From contig JAFXEU010000052.1 of NCBI GenBank assembly GCA_017520845.1, forward strand, positions 23,621-87,620: a stretch of DNA of 64,000 nt, in the 5' to 3' direction. This document shows, piece after piece, positions 1-26,524 of the stretch. Below the pieces are notes generated by a model that saw nothing but the letters and a program-made list of their open reading frames with translations, was not told the DNA's origin and ran no database searches. How positions within the stretch are numbered: the stretch's first letter is position 1; the number at the start of each line of letters is the position of its first letter. The position numbers and the translations under genes are program-made. Source of the stretch: Kiritimatiellia bacterium (lineage in GTDB: Bacteria > Verrucomicrobiota > Kiritimatiellia > RFP12 > UBA1067).

Positions 1-87
1 AACGGCCTCGATAGTCAAACCGGAAGCATTGAAATCAACTCCGGCATAGCCATTCACCTGAAGATCGACCCATTTATCTGTTTTCAT
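1..87 (-). CDS. nagA: N-acetylglucosamine-6-phosphate deacetylase-like amidohydrolase, N-terminal 29 codons only (gene continues beyond window start)
   Basis: The reverse complement of 1-87 reads MKTDKWVDLQVNGYAGVDFNASGLTIEAV. The DLQVNGxxGVDFN motif matches the metal-site region of NagA-type amidohydrolases. A GGGAG RBS lies 9 nt upstream of the ATG at 87-85. The context is a GlcNAc catabolism operon. Confidence 0.45.
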   Translation of the reverse strand, partial: MKTDKWVDLQVNGYAGVDFNASGLTIEAV

Positions 88-127
88 GTTTCTTCACTCC
101 CGAATGCAGCATACTGCGCGCTAAACG

Positions 128-1291: not shown

Positions 1292-1307
1292 CTCGAAAAA
1301 TCCTCGA

Positions 1308-2854: not shown

Positions 2855-2860
2855 TCGGCA

Positions 2861-3601
2861 TCATTTCAGTTTGGCGGCAGCATCCATGTCCAGATACAAC
2901 GTACAATCACGATGACGACGGAGGATCGACGATGGGCACATGTTCGTCAGCGGTCCGTCGACGGCTGCGGCGACGGCATCGGCCTTGCGCGCGTCCGGGA
3001 CGATTACGAGAATGGCATTCGCCGCCATTATCTGGGGAACCGTCATCGAAAAGGCATGTGTGGGAACGCTGTCGAGATTCGGGAACCACCCTTCGCCGAC
3101 CTGCTGCATGCGGCAGGCCTCGTCAAGCTCCACCACCGCAAACGCGGCATCGGTCTCGAAATCTGCGGGCGGGTCGTTGAATGCGATATGGGCGTTCTCG
3201 CCGATCCCGATGCAGGCAAGATCAATAGGCTTTTCGCGGATGGCCGCTTCCAGACGCGCACATTCCGCGGCCGTATCCGCCGCATCGCCGCAGACAAAGG
3301 TAAATTCCTTCGGCAGCACAGGAAGCTTTGACAGAAGCCTGTCCTTGAAATAACGCCGGAACGAGGCAATGTGGGTGTCTGGGATTCCGACATATTCGTC
3401 AAGATGGAACGCATGAACCTTCGTCCAATCAATCTCGGCATGGGTCGTCAGCGATTCGATAAACGCAAACTGGCTCGCGCCGGTCGCCAAGATCACGCGG
3501 GCTTCGCCGCGTTCGGCGATTGCGGCGCATATCCGCTTCGCCGCGTCATCGGCTGCGACGCGCCCCATATCTTCCTTCGTCTTTTCAATGACTGTCTTCA
3601 T
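2861..3601 (-). CDS. nagB: glucosamine-6-phosphate deaminase
   Basis: NagB/6-phosphogluconolactonase-family sequence with ILATGASQ, HLDEYVG and GIGENAHIAFNDP motifs. Length is 246 aa. Confidence 0.8.
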   Translation of the reverse strand: MKTVIEKTKEDMGRVAADDAAKRICAAIAERGEARVILATGASQFAFIESLTTHAEIDWTKVHAFHLDEYVGIPDTHIASFRRYFKDRLLSKLPVLPKEFTFVCGDAADTAAECARLEAAIREKPIDLACIGIGENAHIAFNDPPADFETDAAFAVVELDEACRMQQVGEGWFPNLDSVPTHAFSMTVPQIMAANAILVIVPDARKADAVAAAVDGPLTNMCPSSILRRHRDCTLYLDMDAAAKLK

Positions 3602-5108: not shown

Positions 5109-5123
5109 TTCAAACCACCTCCG

Positions 5124-8100: not shown

Positions 8101-9302
8101 GCGAACATCATATCCTGCCAGACGAGAAGCCCGAGCTCGTCGCAGATGTCGTAAAATCCGTCATCCTCGTAAACGCCGCCGCCCCATACGCGGATCATGT
8201 TCGCGCCCGTCTTCGCCGCTTCGCGCAGCTGAAAAGCGGCCCGGTCGGCCGTGCGCCGCGAAGGGAACGCCTCCGAAACTATCCAGTTCCAGCCCTTCGC
8301 GAAAACATCCGCTCCGTTCACCCTGAAGAAAAACGATTCGCCGCCCTTCGAGTCCTTTTCACGGACGAGCTCGACCGTTCTGAAGCCGAGATTGCGCTTG
8401 AGAGTTTCGCCCTCGCACGAAACGCTGTAACGGTACAGATTCTGTTCGCCGTAGCCGTTCGGCCACCAGAGACGCGGCTTTTCGACAACGAAAGGAGCTT
8501 CGATCGTGAACGGAGCGCACGAGCGCGGCACTTTCGCTTTTACAGTTTTCTTTTCACCCTCAAACTCGAAATCGACTCGGACCTCGTCGCCGGCCTTCGC
8601 GCACGCGACGGGCGAAACTTCGGCCGTCAGAACGACGCGGCCTTCGCCGTTTTCGATTTTCTGGGCGTGCCAGACGTAATCGAGATACGCCGTATCGGCC
8701 GATCTAAGGCGGACTTTACCGAGAATGCCGGACGTCGGGACGGAAACGCCCCAATCCCATCCGGCCTGACACTGCGTGCGCCGGAGAAAATTGATGTACC
8801 TTATCGTGTTGCGCCCGTGGCTGGAGATTTTGTCGGAACATCCCGCGGCGGCCTTGCGCTTAAGACTCGCTTTCAGGGGAGAAGGCAATCTCACCTCGAG
8901 AACGTTTTCGTCTTTGAGGATCCCCGTCACGTCAAACGACCATTTGCGGAACTGGTTGTTCGCGTAAAATCTTTCGCCGTTAAGAACGATTTCGGCAGGA
9001 TCGTCTACCGATTCGAATTCAAGTCGGACGTTTTTAGCGTCTTTCATCGCCGGCTCGAGTTTGAAGCGGCGCGTGAAAACGCTCGTGTCGTTCACATGTT
9101 TCTGCACGAGCCATTCGTTCGTCCCGAAGAAAGGATCGGGTATCAACGAGGCTTTCAAAAGCGCGGAATAATTGTCTCCCGGTATTTCCGCGGCGATTGC
9201 GGGGGCGTCGCCCATCTTGAGCTCCCACGCGCCGCCGAGATCCTGCTCCGCCGCCAACGAAGGGAGCGCAGCCAAAAAACTTATAAAAAAGAACTTTTTC
9301 AT
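5124..9302 (-). CDS. secreted GH2 beta-mannosidase-like enzyme fused to a C-terminal hexosaminidase-like (GH20-like) TIM-barrel domain, 1392 aa
   Basis: Signal peptide MKKFFFISFLAALPSLAA. The WWPNGYGEQ and VWGGGVYEDDGFYDICDELGLLVWQDMMFACA motifs match GH2 beta-mannosidases. The C-terminal region (NAVMLYCED...MVPCIETLGHLE...IHLGMDEAGG) resembles the GH20 catalytic core. The C-terminal family assignment is tentative. Confidence 0.6.
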   Translation of the reverse strand: MKKFFFISFLAALPSLAAEQDLGGAWELKMGDAPAIAAEIPGDNYSALLKASLIPDPFFGTNEWLVQKHVNDTSVFTRRFKLEPAMKDAKNVRLEFESVDDPAEIVLNGERFYANNQFRKWSFDVTGILKDENVLEVRLPSPLKASLKRKAAAGCSDKISSHGRNTIRYINFLRRTQCQAGWDWGVSVPTSGILGKVRLRSADTAYLDYVWHAQKIENGEGRVVLTAEVSPVACAKAGDEVRVDFEFEGEKKTVKAKVPRSCAPFTIEAPFVVEKPRLWWPNGYGEQNLYRYSVSCEGETLKRNLGFRTVELVREKDSKGGESFFFRVNGADVFAKGWNWIVSEAFPSRRTADRAAFQLREAAKTGANMIRVWGGGVYEDDGFYDICDELGLLVWQDMMFACAYYPVDDWKFRDNIRAEVVHQIKRLKSHPSIAIWCGDNESYWCSYVTRSWYALCDRLSTTIAEAAARTDPGRFFWPSSPCSGDRRWEENFDYDKGDSHCWGVGGGNRPIEAYLALKVRFMSEYGWRSYPQADYMRRFVSSLDPESPDMMNHVKKEGEEKRALAAIKEYFGEPKDEESFMYLTQVLQARLLRKVQNRCHAEMPYCMGVLNWQLNDWWPTYSDSSIDHALNLKAAMYAARRFNKPLVAFLDSRTNSEFDSVATVVWDLPRPLKGRLTVSRRRMSDGAETARNTYPFSFEGAGVKTFGETERESSGTFLVLSVEGFDAEGKAYRNEETETVSRLARTDLPSPGLKVEGARVLEDGSVEVSVSSEAPSFATMLYVAGDQGGEFDENFVTLFGGRRVFRYAPGAKMTAGEFLSRLTIWNLKDALKAERKTDETAGRPSSHSKFETLGAMIDVSRGRVLRIDYLEKRFKRMSEMGYNAVMLYCEDVFRLDGEAKFGYMKGRYSKADVKRIKELADKYGLRMVPCIETLGHLETVLRWSDYADIKNTGSTLLVGEEKSYALIEKMIAFWAETVGGEQIHLGMDEAGGFAGARYAKKNGKRDKSEVFVEHLRRVNEICAKYGFSRPIIWSDMIYRNASSTHDYYDENATVDPSLAEKLPENVTLCYWDYYHDRQEYYEKMIDGHRKLSDNLILAGGIQVWAHFLHDREKTLATSAPFVRAALKKGCREMWFTVWGDDGSASMPDIAEEGLFACAELSSGRTPEPNAENCARFGRITGLDYRALVKLGDVMRHYADEWPDMILDFSILYDDPIYCGNYRNYLVRKPSETKDRRFYCAKYKTKEWRDDANAVMADYRRTLVECEKLENLPASAKSLVKVLRAKLDYEADILAAWKRKDKALIARITFEDLPCLRKLMQDFCVEYRADWHSTSLPFGFERIQKRNAAQLERMAEAERRLSDYLAGRADTIKELDEAAEDFGAYSPNPVTAW

Positions 9303-9320
9303 GGTCGCATATTCCTTTTC

Positions 9321-12300
9321 TCATTCCGGTGCGCCGATGATCTTCATCTCCTTGTCTTCGGCACCGCTTTTGACGTCATCGAGCCACTTCTTCTCTTCTC
9401 TGATCGCGCTCGCCCTGTATCCGTCCCATGCGCGGCGGAGAGATCTCACCTCCGCCGCCGCCATGGGATCGCGCACACGCTTTTCGGCCGACGCGATGCA
9501 CTTCTCGAGTTCATCCGCCACGGAACCAGCGAAAAATCCATCCGCTTTCGTGCGCATGGCGTTTCGCAGGATTATGTCGCAATCCTCAAATTCCATGGGA
9601 GACGCGAACGTAAGATTCTCGATCGCGGCCGACATGACAAGCGAATAAAAGCGTCCGACATCTTCCGCCGCTTCGCGGAAGGTGCGCTTAAGATAGTACG
9701 CGCGAAGCTTCGGCACGTCTGCGCCCGACGCGCCCCAGAGAAGTCGCTCCATAACCCACTTTTCCATATTACTCAAAGCTTTCGACTCCGCCTCCGCGTG
9801 CCAGTCGAAAAACCCGAGCTCGACCTCGGCCTTGTAATCCCACGCGGCGACGTCGGCCCACGGACGCGCCCCGACGCAGAGGAAGTATTCGTAAAGAGAA
9901 AGCCTCACATCCTGCTGGCTCCACGCGACCATCGAACGGTAATGAAGATCGTTCATCGGCGCGAAGATCGGCACGAAATAATTCTTTCTGATATACGGGC
10001 AGAATCTGATGTCGTAATTGCGCGAGACCGTTATGAGCGGAATCGGCGACATCCAGAAATATCCGATCGACTCTATCCGCGCGTCGCGTTTCGCGAAAAC
10101 GTTGACCGCGTTTATCATCGCGGAACCGTTGGCGTAATACTGCGTCGAGCGGAACGCCGCGCTTTCGGGGCCTACCGTGGAACCGTCGGCGAGACGGATC
10201 GGGGTCAGACACTCCGAGCACTGGCACATCGAAATCGAATCTTCGACCCAGAGACCGTGAAGATCGTATGAGTTCCATGCGAACGCGCGCCCCTTCTCCT
10301 GCGTTTCCGCGAACGGTCCTCTCGTTATGCGGGCAAAAGCCGACGCTTCCAGATAGTTCTCGCGCGCCCTGTCGAGAACGCGTATGAGACACGGATGCCC
10401 CGTATAGCAGCCGGGCTTCATCAAAGTGCCGTCGGCGCGCCGCCCCCACGTATCGTTCGGCTCGCCTTTCTTCTCGTCACCCCTCGGCTCGGTGCCGTAG
10501 CCCCACCAGTGGTTTATGCAGCGCGTGCGCTGACGCGCGAAATGCCAGCTGCCCTCCCACTGGAAACCGGGCACGCGATTCGGCCCGTCAACGCCGAATA
10601 TGCTGTATTCGGGCATTTCCGGCGCGTGGACGAAGCCGTCGCCCCACCTGATTTCGAAGTCTCCGCCCGCATCCGGCTCGAAAATCCTCACGGGCCTTCC
10701 GTCCGCGCCCGAATGCGGATAAATGATGTCCGTGTTGTTTTCAAGAAGCTCGTAAAGCGCGAACGCGAGCCCTCTGACGTTTCCCGCGTAATTATACCGC
10801 GAAGCGTAGATATAAACGTTCGTTCCGTCCGAGCGTATTGCGCAGCCCGGCTTTCCCGCGAGCGCCTTCATGTCGGCGTCGTACTGCGCCTTATCGATTT
10901 TCGAATAGGCGTTGCCGCCGACGATGATCGAATTTTCGATCTTGGCGCCTTTCTTCGGCGGCAGACGCGTCTCGATCCTGATGTCTGCGGCCATCGAAAA
11001 CTTGCGCTGGAGAACGCCCGCGAATTCGTTGGCGGCAGCGAAAACGATTTTGGAATACACCGCGCGCTCCGCCGCCGTGGCACCCGGCGGAAAACTCGCC
11101 GGCAGAACGTAGATCTTTCCCTTGGGCCTGCGCTTTTCGATGAATTTTATCGGTGCGGCGAGCCTCCCTTCTTTCGGCGGATCGAACGCGCTTTTCATCG
11201 AATCGAAATCGATCACCCTTTTCGTGTCGCGCGATCCGAGGAATTCCCTGTATTTCGCGAGATCGCCGCCGGTATGCATAACGCCTCTGGTGAAACGCGG
11301 GTCGGCTATCGTCACGACGACTTTCTCATTGTTGTTTGTCGGTATCTTCTTGTTGTCATAATAAAAACACCAGTGGGTGAGCTTGGTGTAATAGGAGCTC
11401 TTGTTGTTCGATGGATCCGAGTTGGCGATATCGTAAGCGAAAACCCTCCAGCCGTCTCCGCCGCGCGAAAGCCCGCTCGACATGTCCTTGTTCTGACAAT
11501 AATCGGCCTGAGCCAGACCCCAGCGCGTCCAGTCGCAAAAATCGTGCGTCTTCGAGAAGAAGCTTATCTGAAACGTATCGAAAGGCTTGTTGAGTTCCTT
11601 CTGGTTGGTGCCGTAAAGCATCGGCTTCAAGTCGCCGAGAAGCGGCTTCGCCCCGTCGAACGTCTCGACCTTGGCGAAAAACGTGAACGTGTTATAGTCC
11701 AAGCCGTCGATCTCCACCGGAAAGCGCAGAAGACAGCGAGGACCTCTCTGCAAAGTTATCTTGACGGCCGGGGCGTCCTTGCCGAGAACTTTCACCGTCG
11801 TATATTCGACCGTGAAGCCGCCGTCTTTTTCTTTTTCGAGCTGCGGGCGAAGTTCATACCTGTCCGGAAGCGCGGGGATCGAATCGGCCGCGCCCTCGCC
11901 TCGGGCATACTTGAAAACATCGTCGATGCACTTCGATTTGACAAGCGGCTCGCCGGTGCCGAAAACATTCTCCTTTCTGGTCCAGCGTCTTTCAGGCAGC
12001 GCCGTAAAGCGGGCTTTCGGTTTCGGCCTCAAAAGCCTCAAGTCTATGATCTCAAACTCCTGCTCGAAGTCTTCGCCGTCAGCCGCGCCCGCGACAAACG
12101 AGAGCCTGTCTATCGTCGCGGCGTTTTTCGCCTTGAACGGAATCGTGAAATCTTCGAATTCGCCGCCGACATTTCCGGAAAGCCGCGCCGAAAAGTTTTT
12201 GCCCGAGAGCGCGACCAAGAGAGACGGAGAAGCGTTTTTGACCTTCGCTCTGACCCTGAACGCCAAACCCGTGAAATCGTCGGCGCGGAGATTGAGCCTA

Positions 12301-12689
12301 TCGATGACAATAGTCCTGACGTCGGGGTTTTTCTCCGCGGCAGACGAAAAGGAAAGCGCGGCCTTGTTCTTGCCGGTGTCGATAAGCCCGACGGCGATCT
12401 CCTTCTCGATCACCGTCCTGTCTATCGGGCGTATTCCGAGAGCGAGAGCGTACGCGCCTTCGTATTTAAGCCAACGGTACTCGTTGACGCGCGTATTGAG
12501 AGTATATCGCGCGACGGGGGTTTTCGGCACGGCGTCCACGGGAAGCGGATAGTATGCCGTGACGTATTCTTTCTCCGGCATCGTGCCGAGCTCTTCGCTC
12601 GGCTCCGCCGCCTTGATCTTGAGGGCGGGCGCGGCAAAAAGCGACGTCGACATCGCGATTGAAACTGCACATGCGAAATTTCTGATCAT
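9321..12689 (-). CDS. large secreted hypothetical protein (1122 aa), paralog of 13839-16184; possible glycoside-hydrolase-like (DUF4838-like)
   Basis: Signal peptide present. Shares a conserved Cys-containing C-terminal block with 13839-16184 (W-N-x-x-x-x-x-x-x-x-x-C-x-C-x-x-C ... RSTQY ... C-terminal RAYYLKRTFREA/FLRRVYREG). The DUF4838 label is from memory, not verified. Confidence 0.5.
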   Translation of the reverse strand: MIRNFACAVSIAMSTSLFAAPALKIKAAEPSEELGTMPEKEYVTAYYPLPVDAVPKTPVARYTLNTRVNEYRWLKYEGAYALALGIRPIDRTVIEKEIAVGLIDTGKNKAALSFSSAAEKNPDVRTIVIDRLNLRADDFTGLAFRVRAKVKNASPSLLVALSGKNFSARLSGNVGGEFEDFTIPFKAKNAATIDRLSFVAGAADGEDFEQEFEIIDLRLLRPKPKARFTALPERRWTRKENVFGTGEPLVKSKCIDDVFKYARGEGAADSIPALPDRYELRPQLEKEKDGGFTVEYTTVKVLGKDAPAVKITLQRGPRCLLRFPVEIDGLDYNTFTFFAKVETFDGAKPLLGDLKPMLYGTNQKELNKPFDTFQISFFSKTHDFCDWTRWGLAQADYCQNKDMSSGLSRGGDGWRVFAYDIANSDPSNNKSSYYTKLTHWCFYYDNKKIPTNNNEKVVVTIADPRFTRGVMHTGGDLAKYREFLGSRDTKRVIDFDSMKSAFDPPKEGRLAAPIKFIEKRRPKGKIYVLPASFPPGATAAERAVYSKIVFAAANEFAGVLQRKFSMAADIRIETRLPPKKGAKIENSIIVGGNAYSKIDKAQYDADMKALAGKPGCAIRSDGTNVYIYASRYNYAGNVRGLAFALYELLENNTDIIYPHSGADGRPVRIFEPDAGGDFEIRWGDGFVHAPEMPEYSIFGVDGPNRVPGFQWEGSWHFARQRTRCINHWWGYGTEPRGDEKKGEPNDTWGRRADGTLMKPGCYTGHPCLIRVLDRARENYLEASAFARITRGPFAETQEKGRAFAWNSYDLHGLWVEDSISMCQCSECLTPIRLADGSTVGPESAAFRSTQYYANGSAMINAVNVFAKRDARIESIGYFWMSPIPLITVSRNYDIRFCPYIRKNYFVPIFAPMNDLHYRSMVAWSQQDVRLSLYEYFLCVGARPWADVAAWDYKAEVELGFFDWHAEAESKALSNMEKWVMERLLWGASGADVPKLRAYYLKRTFREAAEDVGRFYSLVMSAAIENLTFASPMEFEDCDIILRNAMRTKADGFFAGSVADELEKCIASAEKRVRDPMAAAEVRSLRRAWDGYRASAIREEKKWLDDVKSGAEDKEMKIIGAPE

Positions 12690-12693
12690 CGCC

Positions 12694-13842
12694 TCATCTC
12701 CTCTTGTGTTTTTTCCTCTTGTCTTTACCGACGCCGAAAACCGCTTCTCCTATCCCCGGAAGGACCTCTTCCCACGGCTGACATCTCTTTTTATCGTCCT
12801 TCTCGAGACAAAACCACGTGCATTTCTCTCCGTAAATCCAGATATGTCCGCCGCTCGCCCGTCGTTTGGCCTCTTTGAAATTGTCCTTGAAAAAATGGAC
12901 CTTCGATTTCGCCGCGTTAATGGCCGGCGTGAGGCAGCCGCTTTTCTCGGGCCAAGCGTAGGCATCGAGATAGAACGCCGGGGCGAAACCGCCCTGCTTG
13001 CGGTGCTTCGAAGCCAGTCGTTTATCGAGCATTCCGCAGCCCGTCTCGTTTCTATTTTCCATACGCTTGTAGGCGGCTTCATTTTTCGCGCAGTAGCCGT
13101 TCCATTCGTCGCCATCGACAAGCCTCGCCTTGGGCGGCATCGTCTCAAGAAGTCCGTTGCAGAACTCGCCCATAAGGTCCGAACCGTTGAAGCTCCAGAG
13201 ATAAAATCCCCACAAGACGATTTCGGGAAACTCTTCAAACACGCGCTCACCCACTTCGCGCCCGCGCCTCCGAGCGACTTCGAGATATTCTTTTTGGGTG
13301 TGGCTTAAATCCGGCGGCTGAACGCCACCGCCCTTGATCTTCCCGCCGCCCTTCACCCACCACGCGCTCTTCCAATAGCTGTTGACCGGATACACGCCAT
13401 AGCCTTCCGGGTCGAAACATATACCCGCCATCCCCAGCCTTTTCGCAAGCGCGGCGGCTTTGCCCCAGTTGTACGCGACCGCCTTCCAATAATCATCGCT
13501 GAACCAGTCGGGTTTATGCTGATCGATGAGAACCCCGAGAAAATTATACTTCCATTTCTTGAATTTAATCCCCTTATACAACTTGGCCGCGTCATCGGCC
13601 CTTTCGAGATCGCGCTTCGAAAATTTTGTTTTTCTGAAAACGTCGCTCAGGGCTACATGAATCATGATTCCGTCGAACGGCGCGACCTCTTCGTAAAGGG
13701 CGATGTTTTTTCTGATTTCCGCCAGCGTGGGCAGTCGCGAGCCTACCGAAACGATTTTTACGGGTTCTTTCGCGGAGGCGAAGCCTTGACAGAAGAGAAG
13801 CGCCGCCGTTGCGAAAAAAAGCGATTTCCTTGAGCCGCTCAT
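12694..13842 (-). CDS. secreted hypothetical protein (382 aa)
   Basis: Signal peptide MSGSRKSLFFATAALLFCQGFASA. Shows codon-usage continuity with neighbours. No family recognised. Confidence 0.45.
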   Translation of the reverse strand: MSGSRKSLFFATAALLFCQGFASAKEPVKIVSVGSRLPTLAEIRKNIALYEEVAPFDGIMIHVALSDVFRKTKFSKRDLERADDAAKLYKGIKFKKWKYNFLGVLIDQHKPDWFSDDYWKAVAYNWGKAAALAKRLGMAGICFDPEGYGVYPVNSYWKSAWWVKGGGKIKGGGVQPPDLSHTQKEYLEVARRRGREVGERVFEEFPEIVLWGFYLWSFNGSDLMGEFCNGLLETMPPKARLVDGDEWNGYCAKNEAAYKRMENRNETGCGMLDKRLASKHRKQGGFAPAFYLDAYAWPEKSGCLTPAINAAKSKVHFFKDNFKEAKRRASGGHIWIYGEKCTWFCLEKDDKKRCQPWEEVLPGIGEAVFGVGKDKRKKHKRR

Positions 13843-16184
13843 TTATCCGTCCCCTTTCCCACGGCCTGATTCATCAGAAGCACGTAATGCTTTCTGGCGA
13901 TCGGGTTTCCGATCTTGTCGAGATACCTGCCGAAGACTTCGCGAGCCTCTTCGCCCGTAAGCATCTTGTACGAGCGCGGCGCGCCGCGAAACGCCCTGCG
14001 GCGATAGCGCGCGTAATACTCTTCGGCGGCAGGCGCCCCCTCGCGGTAGACGCGACGGAGAAACCACTTGCGGATTCTTTCCACCTCGTTGATGTCGGCC
14101 GTCCAGCCGATGCGCCCGAAGAGCCACCCGTTCATCATCGCCGTGGGCTTTTTATAGTCGTTCACCCACGCGAGCTCGGAGCCTATTGACGTTGCGCCAA
14201 GCGAAGTGTACCACTTATAGTCTTCCGCGGCGGCCTCGATAGCCGTCGTGTCGGCCCGCAGGAGCGGTCCGAAGGCAAGATAATCGTAAACGCGCATCTC
14301 TCCGCCGAGAGACTTCATCTTCAGCGTATTTTCGTAATATCCCCTGTTGAGAGGATGATAGACAGGCACATTCCCCGACGCCCTCTTGTGCCAGGGACAG
14401 GTAATCCAGACCACATTGTCGGAGATTTTGCATTTGGGGGCAGGGTACTGGAAGAGATATGCGAGAATCTCAGTCTTCACGCCGGGACACTCTTTCGCTA
14501 TCCCGTCCGCCATCGCATTGACGAACTGCATGTACTGGGTCGAGCGATAAAGCATCTCCTCGGCCGTCATGCCGCCTTTGCTCGTCTTGCCGTTCGACTT
14601 GAGAATCGTGCCGTCATCGCACTTGATGGGTTTCGTGCAGCCTTCGCAAACGCATACGCGCCAATTGTCCTCATTCCAGAAGCCAAGAGAGACGATCGGG
14701 TACGGGACCTTCTCCGCCAACGACTTCTTGACCTTCTTCACCCCGTTGGAAATCGCGATCTGGACCGCATCGGGCCCGCTCAGGCAGACCTGTCCGTTGT
14801 AGTAGCTGTGGGGAATGCGTTTCTCGCCGTCGAACGTCATGTACGGTTCCGTCTTGGGGAAGAACTCGATCATCTCTCCGGAACGCGCCGCGTGACCGGA
14901 AAGCCTGTGCACCATGCGCACCGTCGAAAAGTTGCGCGCCCTCCACATGTCCGCATGAAGGACGGGAATCTTGCGCACATTGCGGTAGTCGTTGCCCGAA
15001 AGCCAGCCGCGCGCGCCTGTGGCGGGCTTGTCGCGGCCATTGCCCCAGCGGACCGTGAAATCGGGAGATTCGTCATAGACGGTACCGAACTTTGGATCTG
15101 CCGCCGCAAACACGATCGTCGAATTGTTTTCGAGAAATGCAACCGCACCGCGAAACACCCCGACGGCGCAGGCGTCTCGCGGCAGACCGCAAGATGCGGC
15201 ATTTTCGCTTGTCGTGCCGTTCGGGACGGCGCATCCGATATGGATGTCACGCCCCTTTGTGCGAACGAACCACCCGTCTATGCCTTTCGCATCCTTCAGC
15301 CATTCGACATCCTCCCTCCAGAGTTTGTGCGCTTCGTCCGAATTGAGGAAGATTCTGTATTTGACAGTTCCGGTAGGCGCCTCTACAATCGCAATCTTCG
15401 CGCCCGTCATCTTGCCTATCCAATACTGAAGTTCTCGCGCGGCAAGCTCGACAGAGCCGTAGACGTCTTTAGGAGCGACAATCTCCACATGGGCGACACC
15501 ATTCTCGACGATCTTGAGCGGCTTTTCAAGCCGACCTTCTGCAGGCGGCTCTAGCGCCCATGAAGAATCGGACATATCAGGTTCGTACTTGTCGCACCAG
15601 GCAAGCCACTTCCTGAAAAGCATGTCGCGCGGAGTACCCTTCCACGAATCTTCGCGGAAAAGACGGATATCCGAAATCCATATCTTCCTGGTCGCGCTTT
15701 CGTCTTCACCACCCTCGGGAAGAACGGTCATGCGGATGCGCGTCATGCGCCTGCAATCTATCCAGCTCGCCCAGTACGGCTCGTGCACGAGTTCGCGCCT
15801 AACGCGCGTCAGCAGCGTCTCCGTCTTCACCGCCTTCTCGTTCATGGTCCCGTGGACATTGTACCCGCCGCGGTACTCGACTATCGTCCGCACCGGGAAG
15901 GTGCGCTCGATGCAATAGTCGATCACCTGGTAGTCGTTCATCATATCGACACCACCCAGAGGTATCTCGATGAACAGGGTAAACCCCTTTCTGCACGGAA
16001 ATTCTACACAGTAGGCAGGCCTCGTCTCTCCGCCGAAATCGTGCGGAGCGCATGTAACGCGACACTCCTTGGCTCGGTTTGTCGGGATGTCCAGTTTGAA
16101 CTTTTCTGGCCTGATGATATGAGACAGCGCCTCAGCACCCGCTAAAAACGGCAGAAGAAGAAATATTAAGACTATTTTTTTCAT
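13839..16184 (-). CDS. large secreted hypothetical protein (781 aa), paralog of 9321-12689
   Basis: Signal peptide MKKIVLIFLLLPFLAGA. Alignable to 9321-12689 over the C-terminal ~450 aa (CVCEGCTKPIKCDDG...LYRSTQY vs CQCSECLTPIRLADG...AFRSTQY). Confidence 0.5.
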   Translation of the reverse strand: MKKIVLIFLLLPFLAGAEALSHIIRPEKFKLDIPTNRAKECRVTCAPHDFGGETRPAYCVEFPCRKGFTLFIEIPLGGVDMMNDYQVIDYCIERTFPVRTIVEYRGGYNVHGTMNEKAVKTETLLTRVRRELVHEPYWASWIDCRRMTRIRMTVLPEGGEDESATRKIWISDIRLFREDSWKGTPRDMLFRKWLAWCDKYEPDMSDSSWALEPPAEGRLEKPLKIVENGVAHVEIVAPKDVYGSVELAARELQYWIGKMTGAKIAIVEAPTGTVKYRIFLNSDEAHKLWREDVEWLKDAKGIDGWFVRTKGRDIHIGCAVPNGTTSENAASCGLPRDACAVGVFRGAVAFLENNSTIVFAAADPKFGTVYDESPDFTVRWGNGRDKPATGARGWLSGNDYRNVRKIPVLHADMWRARNFSTVRMVHRLSGHAARSGEMIEFFPKTEPYMTFDGEKRIPHSYYNGQVCLSGPDAVQIAISNGVKKVKKSLAEKVPYPIVSLGFWNEDNWRVCVCEGCTKPIKCDDGTILKSNGKTSKGGMTAEEMLYRSTQYMQFVNAMADGIAKECPGVKTEILAYLFQYPAPKCKISDNVVWITCPWHKRASGNVPVYHPLNRGYYENTLKMKSLGGEMRVYDYLAFGPLLRADTTAIEAAAEDYKWYTSLGATSIGSELAWVNDYKKPTAMMNGWLFGRIGWTADINEVERIRKWFLRRVYREGAPAAEEYYARYRRRAFRGAPRSYKMLTGEEAREVFGRYLDKIGNPIARKHYVLLMNQAVGKGTDK

Positions 16185-16225
16185 ATGTCGTACTGATTGC
16201 CCACCTGCTTTTCAGCAAGCTCCGT

Positions 16226-19200
16226 TTATCTGACTATGACCCTAAAGCCCTGCATTATCTCCAATTCAAAGCAACCTAAATCTACCCGGTCTCCGTAAAC
16301 CCTCGCCTTGCCCGAAAGATCAAGCGCGCCTTTCATCCACTCTTGCCTTATGCCGGCATTTAACGCCGGGGACCTGCGGCCAAAGGTATAGTCGTCGTTC
16401 AAAAGAGGATCTGCGGCGAGATTGCCTTCTCCCGCGACCTCCCCCTTCGTGAGCGTATATGTAGCCGCAGCGCCGCCGGAAAGCACCAGGTTTCCATCAA
16501 TCCAAGACTGATTTTTTCGTTGACCGCCGTTATCGAAGCAAATTGAGTTTATTATGGAGCCGGCGAGCAAATATACACCGCCCGCAGCCTGATGGACGCA
16601 AGACCTGTTGCCTACGATTGTACAGTTCTCGACAGCCGCGCCGGCGGAATAGCTCGCGCTTTCGGTCGTTCTAACAGCGCCTGCAACTGGATAATCATAA
16701 ACTGTGTTATTCATCTGAGATATCGAATTGTTCACGATAAGACAGTTACGCACGGTCGTTTTATATCCGAGCAGCACACCGCAAGACGCCGCTTTGATAC
16801 TAGAATTGACAATATCGCCGACGGATGTCGTATTGTTGGAAATAACGCAGCTGTCGATAAGAACATTGCCGTAATCGGCGCTCCACTTCGTATCGGTATA
16901 ATATGACGCCGCATTTACTCCGATTCCGAGATAATATGCATTTCGGTTAAAATAGTTCTCATTGTTGAAAATCCTGCATTTCAATATCTTAGCGCCGCTA
17001 CCGGCGGCAACAGTTCCGCAGCGATAACCGAATTCGCGCATTTGATCGCTATTATTGTAAATATCGCAATCGACCAGAGACGACGCGCCGCCGTCAACGG
17101 TTATGACTCCGGCATATTTGTGACGGCTGATACAGCCAAAAACCTTAGACGACCCGATCGAGCCCTTCACGACCCATACGCACTTGCCCGCGGTGCCGGC
17201 GTTTCCATCACGGATAACGCTGTTGGTGATGACGCCGCCGTTAAGATAAACCCAATGTTCGACACAACCTTCAGATGCGCCCGTTGTAACGGCATTGCTT
17301 ATGACGCAATTGTCGACCGTGCCGGCGTTCACCATATTGAGCGCATAGCCGACATTGGTCCCCGTCGCAGACGTAGACGAAGTCCTCGCCCTTTGTATCG
17401 TGAGATTTTCAGCTCCCGCGCCGCCGCCTGCAAGCGAAAGGACGCGACGGGTGCCTTCACCGTCGAGAACCGTTTCCTCCGCAGTGGCGCCCGTTCCGAC
17501 GATACGGACCGGTCTGGAGATTGAGACCAGATACGATCCGTCGGCGCTGCAGCCCGAAGAAGCCGTATAAACACCGGGAGCGAGGTACACGACGCCCGGG
17601 GCATCCGCCTCCTCGCCGTAAACGGCTGCAACGGCATCGGCGATATTATGCGCCGCCTTTTCCCATGTATCGTACGGAGCGGTATTGCTCCCCGATGAAG
17701 AAACATAAGTCGCCGTCAACGCGCCATGAATGGTTGAAGTGCACTGAGATGATTTTCCGCCGAGCCATTCGGTTGTAAGCGTTACGGTAAAATCCGTAAA
17801 CTTGTGAGCGAACTTGTAGCGCCACTCGTTCGAGCCGGAAACCGTTTCTTCGACAACGGTGTTGCCGTCGCCGTCAACGATCTTCCACGTGTGGGAAACG
17901 ACTTCGTCAATATGATTCGGAAATGCCTCAAAAGCGATTTCCGCCCCCTTTGGACCGACAAAATCGGACGTCTGCGTAAACTCAACCAATCTTTCATCGG
18001 TATACACAAACTCATAGCAGCCCATATCATGCGCAGCATCTTGAGGGCGAAGCGTGCCTAAAATATCATCGGTCGGCGCTTCGGTTGCGGTTCCCGTATT
18101 ACGGCAAGGCGATTTTTCATTAAGCTCATAATTGCCGTTCTCGGGATTGGCGAAAAGCGGGTCCGAATTTATGCAACCCGTACCGGACATCGCCGTTGAC
18201 GAGCAGCAATATGCGGCATCAACCTTCGTTCCGTTGGATTCTACTTTAAAATTGACAGCCCCTTCAGGTCCATTCCCGTAGAAAATCGAATTACGAACAT
18301 ATGCCGCCACATTCTTGAGGTATATGCCGTGCGACCGGAAACGGCTGACTTCCGTATCGATAGAGTTGTTCACGACCGTGCAATTGAAAACCTTTGTTCC
18401 GGCCGTGTCTACACGAAGCCCCCCTGCATAAAACCAGGTGGTTGTCGTGCCTGAACGCGGATTAGTTATACGGTTACCGTATATCAGCAGATTCTCAAGT
18501 TTCGACGCGCCGTTCGCGACCCACACGCCTCCTACGCAAGCGGAATACGCCATGTTGTTTCTGACGACAGTTCGGCGAACCGTTGCCGCGCCGTTAAGAT
18601 AAATCGGAGCGCTATCGAAGAGGGGACTGGCGGCCGTATCATTTTCGGTATAATTATTCTCAACGACACAATCTTCTATAAGCGCTCCGGTCGAATGAAC
18701 TCTGATGCCGGGAGTCGCTCCGGTGAATTTTTCATGTGCAAGCAATCTATTATTCGCGACGACGGTTTTTGAAAGCGAGGAATTGCCGCTCATGTAAACC
18801 ATCCCGATTCCGATTGAGCGGATTACATTGTTGGTCACATGACATTGCGTCATTTCGGAATTCGACAACACGACCCCGGCTCCGCCCAACGAATAATTCT
18901 TTCCGTTTTTATATGTGGCATTCCTGATGACGGACTTTTCGATTTTGCTTTGCAGACTCAACGAAACCAACCGCCCTTGATAGCTCCACGTACCGTCAGG
19001 CGCCTTAGCGGTCCCGGGATCAACCGCCGCATCCGTAAAAATGCAGTTTGAAACCAAAGCCCCGTCCTGCGCGGTCAAAACCCTGTATTTCAAGGTGTCG
19101 TCCTTCGTGCACCTCGCCCCCTTGAAAGTGAGATTCTTTACAACGCCGTTGGTAACGTAAAGAAGCGAAGCCGATGTCGTATCGGAAGCGGTGGCGCTAT

Positions 19201-19474
19201 ATGCCTTGAAGACGGTATCTTCCGGCGAATTGCCCGTACCCTCGAGCGTGACCCCGCTCGGCACCGTAATGCCGGCATAGTCCGCGAGCATATATTCGCC
19301 AGGGGCAACTCTCACCGTATCGCCACTCACAGCTACGGCGAGCGCCGCTTCGACGGTCGCATAGATGTCAGGCACATTAAGCTCTGCCGCGCTGGCAACC
19401 AACGGCGCCATCGCCATGACGGCGAGGGACGCGACGCAATACACTGTTCTTTCAATTTTCGACTGCCTTTTCAT
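16226..19474 (-). CDS. secreted parallel beta-helix repeat protein (1082 aa)
   Basis: Signal peptide present. Has dozens of short N/T/V-rich repeats (VxNN, TVxNN, NNxI) typical of right-handed beta-helix (pectate-lyase fold) proteins. Its start overlaps the GH20 stop (19471-19474). Confidence 0.55.
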   Translation of the reverse strand: MKRQSKIERTVYCVASLAVMAMAPLVASAAELNVPDIYATVEAALAVAVSGDTVRVAPGEYMLADYAGITVPSGVTLEGTGNSPEDTVFKAYSATASDTTSASLLYVTNGVVKNLTFKGARCTKDDTLKYRVLTAQDGALVSNCIFTDAAVDPGTAKAPDGTWSYQGRLVSLSLQSKIEKSVIRNATYKNGKNYSLGGAGVVLSNSEMTQCHVTNNVIRSIGIGMVYMSGNSSLSKTVVANNRLLAHEKFTGATPGIRVHSTGALIEDCVVENNYTENDTAASPLFDSAPIYLNGAATVRRTVVRNNMAYSACVGGVWVANGASKLENLLIYGNRITNPRSGTTTTWFYAGGLRVDTAGTKVFNCTVVNNSIDTEVSRFRSHGIYLKNVAAYVRNSIFYGNGPEGAVNFKVESNGTKVDAAYCCSSTAMSGTGCINSDPLFANPENGNYELNEKSPCRNTGTATEAPTDDILGTLRPQDAAHDMGCYEFVYTDERLVEFTQTSDFVGPKGAEIAFEAFPNHIDEVVSHTWKIVDGDGNTVVEETVSGSNEWRYKFAHKFTDFTVTLTTEWLGGKSSQCTSTIHGALTATYVSSSGSNTAPYDTWEKAAHNIADAVAAVYGEEADAPGVVYLAPGVYTASSGCSADGSYLVSISRPVRIVGTGATAEETVLDGEGTRRVLSLAGGGAGAENLTIQRARTSSTSATGTNVGYALNMVNAGTVDNCVISNAVTTGASEGCVEHWVYLNGGVITNSVIRDGNAGTAGKCVWVVKGSIGSSKVFGCISRHKYAGVITVDGGASSLVDCDIYNNSDQMREFGYRCGTVAAGSGAKILKCRIFNNENYFNRNAYYLGIGVNAASYYTDTKWSADYGNVLIDSCVISNNTTSVGDIVNSSIKAASCGVLLGYKTTVRNCLIVNNSISQMNNTVYDYPVAGAVRTTESASYSAGAAVENCTIVGNRSCVHQAAGGVYLLAGSIINSICFDNGGQRKNQSWIDGNLVLSGGAAATYTLTKGEVAGEGNLAADPLLNDDYTFGRRSPALNAGIRQEWMKGALDLSGKARVYGDRVDLGCFELEIMQGFRVIVR

Positions 19475-21651
19475 TTTTTAGCGCCTCCAATTTTTATGTT
19501 TGTGTTTTCGCAATAGATCGGCGCGGCATTCACGCCTTGCATGACAAGCCGCCGGCGATGCTGTTGAAGACGCTCAACGAACTCGCCGAAATCCTTTTTT
19601 GTGCTACCTGTCCACAAGACCTCCGCAAGTGCGCAGGAGCGCGGCCACATGCGCCAGTCGAGGTCATAGCGATTCCAGATAACTTCGCTCCAGAAACACG
19701 CCTGCGAACCGAGAAGATATTTTTCAGCGTCTCCTTCAAGCCCCCGGGCGGGATCGAACGAATAGACTTTTTCAAGCGAAACGACCTGATGCGTATTTCT
19801 CGGCGTGAACGGATCTTCAGGGTTGCCGTCTGTGCGGTTGAAATAGCAATGGCTCGAAGGACACATGACGAAAGGACGCCTCTGCTTCACAGCTTTAAGC
19901 CCGCCATTGCGCCCGCGCCAGCTCATAACGCGGGCGCCTTCGGGAATATCACACTCTAAAATCTCATCCCAGCCGATAATCTTCTTGCCCTTCTTCCCGA
20001 GATACTCGGCAAAGCGCGCCGTCACATACCCTTGGAGTTTCTCGGGCTTTATGCCCAGCGACTGCGCCTTGGCGCGGCACTTCGGGCACTTCTTCCATCG
20101 TGCCGTCGGGCACTCATCTCCGCCGATATGGACGAACTCGCCCGGGAAAAGCCCGACAACTTCGTCAAGCACCTTTTCTACGAACTTCAGAGCCTCTTCG
20201 TTCCCGACGCAAAGGACGTCGCTCTCGATCCCCCACGTGCAGCGCGGAACGCGCGGCAGTTTCTCTCCCGCGCACGAAAATTCGGGATATGCCGCGAGCG
20301 CCGCGCGGATGTGTCCGGGAAATTCGATTTCGGGAACGACTTCGATTCCAAGCGCATCGGCGTATGCGACAATTTCGCGGATATCATCTTTCGTATAATA
20401 AAACGGGCCGTAAACATCGCCGTTGAACTCATCGCCGCGCGCGAAATGGACGGGCGAGCACGGACGGACGGCGCCATATTTTATGAGATCGGGATACGCG
20501 TCAATCTCGATTCTCCAACCCTGATCCTCCGTCAAATGCCAATGAAGAACGTTGAGCTTATGCGCCGACATCTGCCTTAAAACGTGCTTTATCGTCTCCT
20601 TGCCGAAGAAGTGCCGCCCTTCGTCGATGAGAATGCCGCGCCACGGATATCGGGGATGATCTTCTATTTCGCAGCAGGGGATGACGAGAGGCCGTCCGAT
20701 GTCGCCGCCCGTGTAGAAATCGCAGTTGCGGTAGAAGGTCTTCTCCTCCCCAAGCTGTCTGAGCGTCGCCATCGCATGAAGTTCGCCGCGAACATCCGAA
20801 GCTGCGACCTTTACTCCGCCGGTTGTGACGGAAAGCCTGTACGCCTCGGCCCTCATCGTGGGATCGCGCTCGAATTCGATCCAATCGCGCGTCACATAGG
20901 GCGCCGGAGCCCGATAGGCGCCCGGCGTTTTGCGGATCGAGCGCGGAGCCGGCACCAACGCCGGAACCGGCCTGTCTTCAAGCGCCGGCGACTCGTGCAG
21001 ATTGACGATTTCGCCGATCTTCGCCTTGCCGGAGCAGTCTTTTACGACATCACCCTTCGCATACGCAATAATGTACTCTACTTTGACAGATTCGTTTTCC
21101 TTCGTCACCAGAACGCACGGCGAACCTGAAGGCTGGCCGGAAGCCGCAACCATCATGTTCGAAATCTTGCCGTTCTTCGTTTTGTCGACGACTACTGCGC
21201 ACCCGGCGACATCCTGAAACTCGAGATTCGAAACAACATACCCGTCTGCGTTTCCGATGTTGAGCCCGGTGCGGCCTCCACGCAAAACGGCCTTTTTGAA
21301 ACGGACGCCCAAAACCTCGAAAGCCTTGTCGCTCTCGCAATCCGCACCGCACGACGCATTCCTTATGACATCATCGGCAACGCCCGCCTTAAGCTCGAGA
21401 ACCGGGCTTTCGAGAATAAGCGAAACGCCGGAAGGAAGGACAATCGCGCGGTCGAGACGCCAAACGCCGTCAGCGCTCAAAGGATCCCTCTGTGGGATCG
21501 TAACGCGCCTCGTCCCGTCGGCAACAGCGCCGGCGATAGCCTTTTCGATGCGTTGCGATGCGGAACCTTCAAACTCCGTCGGCGAACGAGACGGCATCGC
21601 CGCAGCGACAGAGGCTGTAAACAATGCGAGAAAAAACATCTTCATTTTCAT
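19471..21651 (-). CDS. GH20 beta-N-acetylhexosaminidase
   Basis: LNVLHWHLTEDQGWRIEI, VPEIEFPGH and HIGGDECP motifs (GH20 catalytic D-E pair context). Signal peptide MKMKMFFLALFTASVAAA. Confidence 0.8.
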   Translation of the reverse strand: MKMKMFFLALFTASVAAAMPSRSPTEFEGSASQRIEKAIAGAVADGTRRVTIPQRDPLSADGVWRLDRAIVLPSGVSLILESPVLELKAGVADDVIRNASCGADCESDKAFEVLGVRFKKAVLRGGRTGLNIGNADGYVVSNLEFQDVAGCAVVVDKTKNGKISNMMVAASGQPSGSPCVLVTKENESVKVEYIIAYAKGDVVKDCSGKAKIGEIVNLHESPALEDRPVPALVPAPRSIRKTPGAYRAPAPYVTRDWIEFERDPTMRAEAYRLSVTTGGVKVAASDVRGELHAMATLRQLGEEKTFYRNCDFYTGGDIGRPLVIPCCEIEDHPRYPWRGILIDEGRHFFGKETIKHVLRQMSAHKLNVLHWHLTEDQGWRIEIDAYPDLIKYGAVRPCSPVHFARGDEFNGDVYGPFYYTKDDIREIVAYADALGIEVVPEIEFPGHIRAALAAYPEFSCAGEKLPRVPRCTWGIESDVLCVGNEEALKFVEKVLDEVVGLFPGEFVHIGGDECPTARWKKCPKCRAKAQSLGIKPEKLQGYVTARFAEYLGKKGKKIIGWDEILECDIPEGARVMSWRGRNGGLKAVKQRRPFVMCPSSHCYFNRTDGNPEDPFTPRNTHQVVSLEKVYSFDPARGLEGDAEKYLLGSQACFWSEVIWNRYDLDWRMWPRSCALAEVLWTGSTKKDFGEFVERLQQHRRRLVMQGVNAAPIYCENTNIKIGGAKK

Positions 21652-21688
21652 TACACGTGATTATACCACCTTCAACCACTATTGCAGC

Positions 21689-21706
21689 AACCTGTAAATA
21701 CAGGTT
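21689..21706. promoter_or_regulatory. 18-bp perfect palindrome AACCTGTAAATACAGGTT, 38-55 bp upstream of the GH20 start; copy 1 of a conserved ~30-bp element
   Basis: Seen directly in sequence. A near-identical 30-bp block TGAAAAACCTGTATTTACAGGTTGYTGCAA (minus-strand reading) recurs at 23251-23268. Confidence 0.4.
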
Positions 21707-21708
21707 TT

Positions 21709-23136
21709 TCAGAACCAGACCGCAAACGCGGCACATCCGTCATCTGCCTTTTTAAGAACGACCTTGCCGTTTCTCAAAGGCGCCGCCACGGCTTCGTAAT
21801 CGCGCGCATGATCATGGACATAGACCCAGGTCTCGGCATCCTTGTCGACACCTTTGAAATCCAGCACTATCTCCTTAGCGCCGCTGTGGTAATCTACGAC
21901 GATGACGCCTTTTCGCGTTCCGTCCTCGCTTCTGGCGGCAAGAGTCGTGATGCCGTCGGCACTCCCGGATTTGCAGATGACGGGAAGCGCTTTTATGAAT
22001 TCCCCGAACATCTTAAGGCCATAATAGACCTTGTATTTTGAATACCCGTCCTTGTATCCCCACGACCCGGTGTGGTTGCACCCGTAATAGTACGCCTGAT
22101 CGAGCTTCGAGGTCTGGAACATCGAAAGAAGCGTGAGATTGAAGCAGGAGGAGACGATTCCGTTGTGCGAACCAGGGCCGGTCCAGACCTTTTTGCGCAC
22201 TTCGGGATCGGGATTGCGAAGCGCGGCAAAGCCGCCCTTGCCCATGTAATGCCATTCGTTGATGATAAGCTCGCAGTCCTTGAAGCCATACTCGTCGCAA
22301 AGCTTGCGGCCTTTCTCAATCGCATTCATGACAACAGGCGGATGCCCCGTATAATGGTGCCACGAAATAAAGTCCGGAGCGACCCCTTCTTTTTTGCACT
22401 CTGCCAGAATGGCCCTGAAATAGCTCTCGTTCATCCAGCACAATGCAGGCCCGCCAACCTTTACTTCAGGAAACTCGCTCTTGATGCGCTTAAGGCACGT
22501 GACGAAAAACTTGACGAACCTGTCGCGGCGCTCCAGATCTCGGGCCTTTCTGTCGGCCGCAATCTCTTCGGGCGCATCTCCTCTGCCTGCGTCGCCGTCA
22601 GGAAGACACCACATGTTGTTGACGCCATCAGGCTCGTTCCAGATTTCCCAATACCTGATGTTCCAATTGTGCCCGTTCGCCCAGCCGCGATTGTAGTGGC
22701 GGACGGTGCCGGCGAATATCTCGGCCACCTTGTCGAAATCGTCAGGAATGAGCGTATTGAAATGGACATTCGGCCCCGAATGCTCAATGGATGCTCCAAG
22801 CCGGAAAAAGATATCCAGCGACGCCTCTTTGCGGCATCTGTCCAGAAGATAATCGGTCGGCGCAAAAACATAGTTCTTGGGATCTTTCGCATCAAGATGC
22901 ATAAGCGGAAATATCTGATGATAGTCGCATACATGCTGATTCGAGTTTACGAGCGCCCAGTCGTGGGTCCTGGCATACTTGAAGCCCATCGACTTTATTT
23001 CGTCGATGACAGCCTGGGAACACCCTTCTATCTTCGCTCCGAATCCGGAACTGTGCAACTCCGGACGCATTCTTCCGGTGTCTACCGTAAAATCAACCGG
23101 CAAAACTGTAGCCAAAACACACGCTGCGATCGTCAT
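21709..23136 (-). CDS. clan GH-A glycoside hydrolase (GH39/GH5-like)
   Basis: The IRYWEIWNEPD motif is the clan GH-A acid/base signature. The likely true start is MTIAACVLATVLPV at 23136 (AGGAGAA RBS just upstream). The track start at 23283 reads through the upstream palindrome. Confidence 0.6.
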   Translation of the reverse strand: MTIAACVLATVLPVDFTVDTGRMRPELHSSGFGAKIEGCSQAVIDEIKSMGFKYARTHDWALVNSNQHVCDYHQIFPLMHLDAKDPKNYVFAPTDYLLDRCRKEASLDIFFRLGASIEHSGPNVHFNTLIPDDFDKVAEIFAGTVRHYNRGWANGHNWNIRYWEIWNEPDGVNNMWCLPDGDAGRGDAPEEIAADRKARDLERRDRFVKFFVTCLKRIKSEFPEVKVGGPALCWMNESYFRAILAECKKEGVAPDFISWHHYTGHPPVVMNAIEKGRKLCDEYGFKDCELIINEWHYMGKGGFAALRNPDPEVRKKVWTGPGSHNGIVSSCFNLTLLSMFQTSKLDQAYYYGCNHTGSWGYKDGYSKYKVYYGLKMFGEFIKALPVICKSGSADGITTLAARSEDGTRKGVIVVDYHSGAKEIVLDFKGVDKDAETWVYVHDHARDYEAVAAPLRNGKVVLKKADDGCAAFAVWF

Positions 23137-23250
23137 ACCAACATTCTCCTGTTTTTGTGTTTGTAAATATCTCCGCCTTATTGCCCTTCTGCATTCCCTG
23201 CGAACGTAAGCACGTTTTTCATATCGTACCACAATCAGCTCTTTTGCAAC

Positions 23251-23268
23251 AACCTGTAAATACAGGTT
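23251..23268. promoter_or_regulatory. second copy of the 18-bp palindrome AACCTGTAAATACAGGTT, 115 bp upstream of the GH39-like start
   Basis: Identical palindrome plus conserved flanks (TTGCAACAACCTGTAAATACAGGTTTTTCAAAA). Confidence 0.4.
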
Positions 23269-23286
23269 TTTCAAAACTGTCATCTC

Positions 23287-26492: not shown

Positions 26493-26524
26493 ATTGGCCT
26501 CCTTTCTTTCGTTAAGGCGCGAAA

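Follow-up and report, generated by a model that had tools for sequence, protein, structure and literature searches.

A putative operator for an AraR-like regulator at two promoters of a glycan and amino-sugar operon in Kiritimatiellae

The window analysed here is a stretch of 64,000 nucleotides (nt) from a Kiritimatiellia bacterium (GenBank assembly GCA_017520845.1, contig JAFXEU010000052.1, positions 23,621 to 87,620), which carries a cluster of genes for glycan and amino-sugar use together with two copies of an 18-nt inverted repeat, the subject of this work. The predicted first regulated gene encodes a GH39-like glycoside hydrolase (21709..23136, minus strand; Pfam ID PF01229, E 7.7e-9), for which the gene callers also give a length of 475 aa. 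It is followed by the gene of a GH20 beta-N-acetylhexosaminidase (19471..21651, minus strand; Pfam ID PF00728, E 2e-102). The remaining co-directional cluster (1..19474, minus strand), annotated with Pfam and NCBIfam, encodes, in this order, a DUF5123 protein, a DUF4838 protein, a 382-aa protein, a further DUF4838 protein, a GH2/mannosidase-GH20C fusion, an SSF symporter, NagB-like and SIS proteins, a ROK kinase, an MFS protein, and a NagA-like protein, whose gene starts at 87 and continues past the left edge. The cluster is tightly packed, with the spacing between open reading frames (ORFs) being at most 41 nt.

The 18-mer AACCTGTAAATACAGGTT is present in two exact copies, at the plus-strand coordinates 21689-21706 and 23251-23268, where dinucleotide-preserving shuffles of the window lead to an expectation of 0.02 matches by chance. 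All genes of the region are located on the minus strand, on which the word reads AACCTGTATTTACAGGTT, and both copies are putative operators in this reading. Copy 1 is found between the stop codon of the GH39-like gene (21709-21711), with its start 3 nt past that codon, and the GH20 ATG (21651), with the copy lying 38-55 nt upstream of it; both distances agree with an earlier reading of this DNA, referred to below as the initial annotation. Copy 2 is positioned upstream of the GH39-like gene, the first of the cluster. It falls inside the longest ORF (21709-23283), yet it is intergenic, 115-132 nt upstream of the GH39-like ATG at 23136. The longest ORF starts at 23283, and the start at 23136 is backed by the gene callers and by a signal-peptide-like sequence; the 49-codon extension (23137-23283, minus strand), which contains operator copy 2 and its -10 element, is spurious.

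The two copies are part of a common 37-nt block with 92% identity (21679-21715 versus 23241-23277), and the 30-bp consensus block given by the initial annotation, TGAAAAACCTGTATTTACAGGTTGYTGCAA, is correct and recurs at both. Its description of the word as a perfect 8-2-8 palindrome needs to be modified, as the 8-2-8 inverted repeat is present, but the central AA/TT is not self-complementary and 16 of the 18 positions are symmetric. A search of the 64-kb window for other copies of ACCTGTnnnnACAGGT with up to 2 mismatches yielded none except one chance-level match in coding DNA, and the sampled part of the source genome, about 71 kb, contains the 18-mer twice only.

Each copy is followed, 22-23 nt downstream, by an extended -10 element before the GH20 or the GH39-like gene (TGGTATAAT or TGGTACGAT). 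For copy 1, a distance of 23 nt leads to TGG-TATAAT (21668-21660), the extended -10 of the internal GH20 promoter (TGGTATAAT, 21660..21668, minus strand, as read from the sequence). For copy 2, 22 nt lead to TGG-TACGAT (23231-23223) within the extended -10 of the first promoter of the cluster (TgTGGTACGAT, 23223..23233, minus strand), with a predicted 5' untranslated region of about 80 nt to the ATG at 23136. A recognisable -35 is found at neither of the two promoters. Because the site has a fixed distance to an extended -10 at both genes, copy 1 is assigned to an internal promoter, as the initial annotation had considered possible. The GH20 gene offers ATG codons at 21651, 21645, and 21639, and because these follow the -10 within 8-20 nt, its mRNA is leaderless or nearly so.

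Promoters of the T-N-TG-N-TAtAAT type with little or no -35 were noticed in the window at 21660-21670, 23223-23233, 23883-23893 (plus strand), and 34302-34312 (minus strand), with housekeeping promoters being few in the window. The same type is seen elsewhere in the clade, at the fetched loci L036, L062, L078, L080, and L082 (L numbers designate loci), where several genes start 6-10 nt past the -10.

Exact scans with the 18-mer that ignored the context resulted in 30 matches among genomes sampled at one per species and 38 matches in metagenomes, which is about the chance number for an 18-mer, most of them in unrelated low-GC genomes without a common context. The exact matches in high-GC Kiritimatiellae, Lentisphaeraceae, and rumen or gut contigs all show one architecture, with the TT-oriented motif being followed after 22-23 nt by (TGn)TAnnAT (L004, L011, L016, L017, L029, L026/L049, L035, L036, L038, L040, L061, and L062). 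The control matches almost never have this motif/-10 architecture.

Contigs of Kiritimatiellae and Lentisphaerae supplied 22 distinct contexts of this kind, representing at least 16 different promoters, and their alignment has the consensus AACnTGTATTTACArGTy. All 22 sites are in the same orientation, 22-24 nt before a -10 of the form T-N-TG-N-TAtAAT or (TGn)TAnnAT. G6 and C13, six bases apart, are invariant in all of them, position 4 is variable, and the 22 aligned sites have no conserved column where a -35 would sit. Motif, spacing, and -10 are retained in the orthologous promoter pairs L017/L029, L026/L040, L011/L016, and window copy 1/L061, whose spacers have diverged, in some pairs beyond recognition; between L061 and the window, both the spacer and the leader differ. 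Conservation of the motif and the -10 amid diverged spacers is, on the aligned sequences, a phylogenetic footprint. The initial annotation had named random scatter, including in coding DNA, as an observation that would speak against a regulatory role; instead, every copy in the Planctomycetes-Verrucomicrobia-Chlamydiae clade is intergenic and promoter-proximal. An ATG is found 6-8 nt past the -10 at the SIS gene of L036, the ROK gene of L062, the SIS genes of L078 and L080, and the GH20 gene of the window, indicating leaderless mRNAs. The motif is placed at about -53 to -36 because these leaderless starts anchor the start of transcription.

In L004 and L035, the motif is closely preceded by the end of a gene for a 351-355-aa protein, in which a GntR winged helix is joined to a periplasmic-binding-protein-like domain of the LacI type. 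With tblastn, a distance of 2-50 nt is found between the end of a GntR+Peripla_BP_3 regulator gene and the motif downstream of it in L004, L035, L017, L029, L040, and L049/L026. Pfam assigns PF00392 plus PF13377, PF00532, or PF13407 to the motif-adjacent regulators and to the regulator of the source genome. The best solved relatives of the N-terminal domain are NagR/YvoA (PDB ID 4u0y, E 4e-7) and the N-terminal domain of AraR, and the C-terminal domain resembles structures of the PurR, RbsR, and LacI family. The suggestion of the initial annotation that the word is an operator-sized site for a dimeric regulator of the LacI, GntR, or XRE type, common to two glycan-degradation genes, gains support from this neighbourhood, as a gene for a regulator with a GntR winged helix and a LacI-type domain adjoins the motif in the majority of loci and in many related genomes. 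L004 carries a long, nearly perfect hairpin between the regulator stop codon and the operator (1364-1396; cgttatttcaaagtaggtc aga cctactttgaaataacg), and most of the other loci have no terminator-like structure at this position.

The association was also followed in the reverse direction, from protein to DNA, with contigs being fetched via homologues of the regulator ([quoted passage not shown]) without use of the motif. A variant of the motif adjoins every close homologue, 22-24 nt from a -10. L069 has the variant AACTTGTATTTACAAGTT upstream of a GH92 gene, L072 has AACTTGTATTTACAGGTC upstream of GH2-ROK-SIS, and L076 has the exact 18-mer upstream of DUF2341/LamG genes and, further on, GH92. 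Both L078 and L080 carry AACGTGTATTTACAGGTT before a SIS-ROK-MFS-regulator operon and AACTTGTATTTACAGGTT before a GH63-like gene (L078) or a GH92 gene (L080). In L082, AACCTGTATTTACAAGTC precedes HAD/PfkB genes and AACATGTATTTACAAGTC precedes a GH10 gene. The co-occurrence of regulator and operator thus holds both ways, from the motif to the regulator and from the regulator to the motif. A 50%-identical paralogue in L095, before GH127 and GH95 genes, has the word AACCTGTATGAGCAGGTT 2 nt past its stop codon and 23 nt before TATAAT. The distant paralogues in L075 and L097 show no clear operator/-10 geometry. At L075, a GH32 (fructan) locus, three tandem repeats of about 47 nt (11105-11250), each with the hairpin AGAGACGGAT-AATC-ATCCGTCTCT, directly follow the paralogous regulator gene.

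The tblastn search found no regulator gene inside the 64-kb window. In an extension of the contig (L084, reached via the NagB-like protein), the MFS and NagA-like genes are followed by a convergent regulator gene of 353 aa (14419-15480 of L084), located about 817-1878 nt to the left of window coordinate 1, and by NCBI protein numbering the regulator comes 13 genes after the GH39-like gene (MBR3776874 to MBR3776861). This protein (MBR3776861.1-type) and the L035 regulator have the same sequence, SRPTISRVTLDLKREGLIITRKGAPS, in the region of the recognition helix. Outside the clade, regulator homologues with 30-37% identity are preceded by the exact 18-mer, at a distance of about 122 nt, in two Solibacteraceae-type (Acidobacteria) contigs (L014, 1542-1559; L060, 780-797). 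These copies are without the 22-24-nt geometry to a -10, and the pair of protein and operator is either old or has been transferred between phyla.

The 18-mer is very probably the operator of an AraR-like GntR/LacI-type regulator that controls two promoters of the glycan and amino-sugar operon. This confidence applies to the assignment of operator and regulator, not to the sign of control, and the regulator is assigned by genomic association and family resemblance. We infer that a regulator dimer would bind the half-sites AACnTG and CAnGTT and, in response to a sugar, would control P1, before the GH39-like gene, and the internal P2, before the GH20 gene, of a 13-gene operon. The bound site would occupy about -53 to -36, directly upstream of the usual -35 position, at promoters that have a T-N-TG-N-TAtAAT extended -10 without a recognisable -35. 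The genes found behind such sites encode GH20, GH39-like, GH92, GH2/mannosidase-type, GH99-like/esterase, GH63-like, GH5, and GH10 proteins, a SIS-ROK-MFS(-regulator) operon, and an SSF transporter, with NagB and NagA being added in the cluster described here. This composition points to a regulon that breaks down N-glycan-type host or dietary glycans and catabolises the released N-acetylglucosamine (GlcNAc) and mannose.

The characterised protein with this architecture is AraR of Bacillus subtilis, a chimera of a GntR winged helix and a GalR/LacI-type domain that defines the AraR subfamily of GntR regulators (PMC1950556). Its operators follow the consensus ATTTGTACGTACAAAT and the signature TNG-(N)6-CNA, and in the crystal structures each monomer reads a T/A-N-G triplet, with the triplets being six bases apart in ORA1 (PMC1950556, PMC3592433). 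The generalised GntR/AraR signature is (N)y-TNG-(N)x-CNA/T-(N)y (PMC3592433). The system described here shares with AraR the chimera of a GntR winged helix and a GalR/LacI-type sugar-binding domain, a 16-18-bp inverted repeat with the GntR signature, and the TG-N6-CA core spacing of ORA1. The core TG-TATTTA-CA equals the AraR consensus TGTACGTACA at 8 of the central 10 bases. As with AraR, the targets comprise glycoside hydrolases together with sugar transporters and catabolic enzymes, and they neighbour the regulator gene.

The differences are nevertheless considerable. The operator flanks are AAC/GTT instead of the ATT/AAT of AraR, and the centre is TT and locked in its orientation, whereas that of AraR is CG. 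A single operator per promoter is fixed and centred at about -44, whereas the AraR operators are paired, act by looping, and take varied positions including the region of the transcription start. The clade is Kiritimatiellae/Lentisphaerae, with additional Acidobacteria-type contigs, the substrates are N-glycan, GlcNAc, and mannose, and the protein similarity is at the level of domains only. Auxiliary operators and looping in the manner of AraR were considered and rejected, as extra half-site-like words are not general, being confined to the regions upstream of window copy 2 and L076. AraR orthology is not supported, given that there are no arabinose genes, that the operators are single, and that operator flanks and centre differ. 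By its architecture, the system is a member of the AraR subfamily and not an AraR orthologue.

Other known systems resemble parts of this arrangement. NagR/YvoA with its dre sites (Bacillus, Streptomyces) matches in the winged helix and in the theme of its regulon, GlcNAc catabolism with nagA and nagB, but its effector domain is UTRA and not LacI-type, and the dre operators differ in sequence from the motif; the likeness considered is at the level of the GntR fold. Activator sites abutting the -35 region are known for FadR at fabA (about -40), for the 7-2-7 sites of NarL/NarP (-43.5/-44.5), and for the lux box of LuxR (-42.5), with FadR being a GntR-family protein able to activate from just upstream of the -35 region. 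These sites are likewise dimeric inverted repeats at a fixed position at or near the -35 region of promoters without a good -35. The centre of the motif at about -44.5/-43.5 instead of -41.5/-42.5, and the strong extended -10 of the promoters studied here, set it apart. The lux-box half-sites ACCTGTA and TACAGGT equal the half-sites of the motif, but the lux-box arms are 6 bp apart as opposed to 2 bp, and no LuxR-type protein accompanies the motif. Because of the wrong arm spacing and the lack of a LuxR-type gene nearby, a lux box was rejected.

With regard to the sign of control, a mode that depends on a stereospecific contact between the regulator and RNA polymerase is slightly more probable than not. 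It would amount to class-II-like positive control, to which the unliganded regulator could add repression. We lean towards this mode because all 22 sites keep their spacing within 1 nt and share the same orientation. All of them are at a fixed, helix-phase-specific position at the -35 region of promoters lacking a -35, as is expected for class II-type activation, and none of the 22 operators is found in the -35/-10 spacer or in the leaders of 25-140 nt. The asymmetric centre always faces the -10, which for a symmetric site at 16 or more promoters would happen by chance about once in 2^16. The L095 paralogue, which combines a different operator with the same spacing, also counts for contact.

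Several points weigh against the proposed interpretation. The motif does not conserve the first base of the TNG triplet, the variable position 4/15 being an outer triplet base, and the AraR residue Q61, which reads this base, would align with a lysine in the regulators described here. A symmetric dimer leaves unexplained why TATTTA, and never TAAATA, faces the -10. The regulator gene of the source genome has no such site upstream, and autoregulation is not general. As to positive control, AraR and the LacI/GntR families are overwhelmingly sugar-released repressors, and the near-consensus -10 elements, from which intrinsically strong promoters are expected, should need no help.

The same operator and AraR-like regulator could thus act as a classical sugar-released repressor, which we consider a realistic possibility, if not quite an even one. 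The unliganded dimer at -53 to -36 would hinder the docking of RNA polymerase through sigma region 4 and the alpha C-terminal domains, and would also block read-through from upstream genes, at copy 1 from the GH39-like into the GH20 gene. Such a roadblock is plausible at the many operators that follow an upstream stop codon without a terminator, and near-invariant, high-information operators are expected where a high occupancy is required. The effector domain, moreover, resembles LacI/PurR/RbsR-type repressors. However, a repressor does not readily account for the single orientation and the 22-24-nt distance of all 22 sites, and a site ending at -36 on a promoter lacking a -35 has no obvious position for occlusion. 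Repressor operators in known regulons, including the eight boxes of AraR, occur at varied promoter positions, which also counts against repression. B. subtilis AraR, the characterised protein of the same architecture, is nonetheless an arabinose-released repressor (PMC1950556, PMC3592433).

Explanations without an operator are far less probable. That the word acts at the level of nucleic acid, as an intrinsic terminator, an attenuator, or an mRNA-stabilising stem, either on the plus strand with the T-run or on the minus strand past the GH39-like stop codon, is very improbable. Either strand can form a 7-bp stem with a 4-nt loop, with the stem taken by itself reaching about -7.6 kcal/mol, the plus strand continues with TTTTT, and copy 1 starts close behind a stop codon. 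This stem is weak, however (z -1.4 to -3.4), and its folding is equalled or surpassed by 2-14 of 200 shuffles. The plus-strand hairpin with T-run that had struck the initial annotation as terminator-like received no call by the terminator scan; no plus-strand gene ends there, and the coding strand has no U-run. In all related loci the element is located upstream of the -10 and hence outside the transcript of the following gene. The variants do not compensate, with positions 4/15 being G/G in L078/L080 and A/A in L082, and positions 1/18 being A/C in L072 and L082, whereas the loop and the orientation, which a stem does not need, are invariant. A dispersed repeat or relic of a mobile element without a regulatory role, such as a repetitive extragenic palindrome, the end of a miniature inverted-repeat transposable element (MITE), or the inverted repeat of an insertion sequence (IS), seems more improbable still. 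In its favour, all five copies of the 12-mer ACCTGYRTTTAC in the window fall within 21694-23395, and inverted repeats around 78 nt (23287-23304 and 23383-23400) as well as an IS30-family fragment at about 23560-23843 are close by. The small copy number of the 18-mer in about 71 kb argues against such an origin, as do the lack of the right half-site in the neighbouring repeats, the restriction of the IR-flanked element to this locus, and the recurrence of the 18-mer across families and phyla with a regulator gene or with the fixed -10 geometry.

Other types of site were rejected in turn. If TTTACA inside the motif were a -35, its distance to the -10 (26-28 nt) would be too long for sigma-70. 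A promoter of an extracytoplasmic function sigma factor ("AAC") or of sigma-54 does not fit the geometry, and the -10 is a sigma-70-type TATAAT. A LexA/SOS box is not supported, as the spacing is CTGT-N4-ACAG versus the gamma-proteobacterial CTGT-N8-ACAG and there is no copy upstream of recA (25470-26534).

The surroundings of the cluster contain further features. The region that separates the operon promoter from the divergent GDSL esterase gene contains a C-terminal fragment of an IS30-family transposase (about 23560-23843, plus strand; NCBIfam NF033563, E 4e-4, model positions 232-266 of 267). Several short-read assemblies of the species break inside this fragment, which suggests further copies in the genome; in a strain comparison of the IS30/MITE region upstream of copy 2, the recovered contigs are all identical or broken inside the IS fragment. 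The 18-nt inverted repeats CAGAAGTAAATGCAGGTT (23287-23304) and AACCTGCGTTTACTTCTG (23383-23400) flank the 78 nt mentioned above, and a 12-3-12 palindrome at 23292-23318 (-25.5 kcal/mol, z -7.7) is part of the resulting element. Its words share AACCTGyrTTTAC with the left half of the operator and are without the right half. No other fetched locus has this 114-bp element, which could resemble a MITE or provide auxiliary half-sites. Two long ORFs on the plus strand at 1731-3331 (173 and 361 aa, rich in Arg, without family matches) are antisense artefacts over the minus-strand ROK, SIS, and NagB-like genes. A different use of the word is found on an 82-kb contig with a coverage of 989 (L053; ERZ1673962 NODE-77), where three promoters of the form ACCTGTATTTACA-N17-18-TAnnnT (4648-4659, 6835-6846, and 9319-9330) have TTTACA as a normal -35, one of them preceding a helicase-like gene; this use is unrelated and probably phage- or plasmid-like.

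More tentatively, and with less confidence than for a classical repressor, AraR-type chimeras could be the main local sugar regulators of Kiritimatiellae and Lentisphaerae and could act in another way than AraR, bound in a locked orientation as an integral part of the promoter at about -44, where they would replace the missing -35 at extended -10 promoters, many of them leaderless, either as obligatory class-II-like activators or as a switch between repression and activation, with the module being reused by paralogues. If this is true, the module of stop codon, operator, 23 nt, and -10 serves different glycans, with GH127/GH95 targets and perhaps GH32.

Kiritimatiellae are abundant, almost uncultured glycan degraders of animal guts. 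In the literature searched, we found no transcription factor/operator pair described for them, no paper linking them to this type of regulator, and none with the motif in a relevant context. The system is a new example of a familiar type of genetic switch, and what is unusual is its rigid, orientation-locked placement at extended -10 promoters without a -35. It provides a testable candidate regulon for the use of N-glycans and amino sugars (GH20, GH92, GH2, ROK, SIS, NagA, and NagB) and a position weight matrix for the annotation of metagenome-assembled genomes, AACnTGTATTTACArGTy followed after 22-24 nt by TGnTAnnAT. It also gives a first look at the promoter structure of the clade: a T-N-TG-N-TATAAT extended -10 without a -35, and mRNAs that are often leaderless. 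How an AraR-type protein communicates with RNA polymerase is a question raised by the rigid spacing and orientation.

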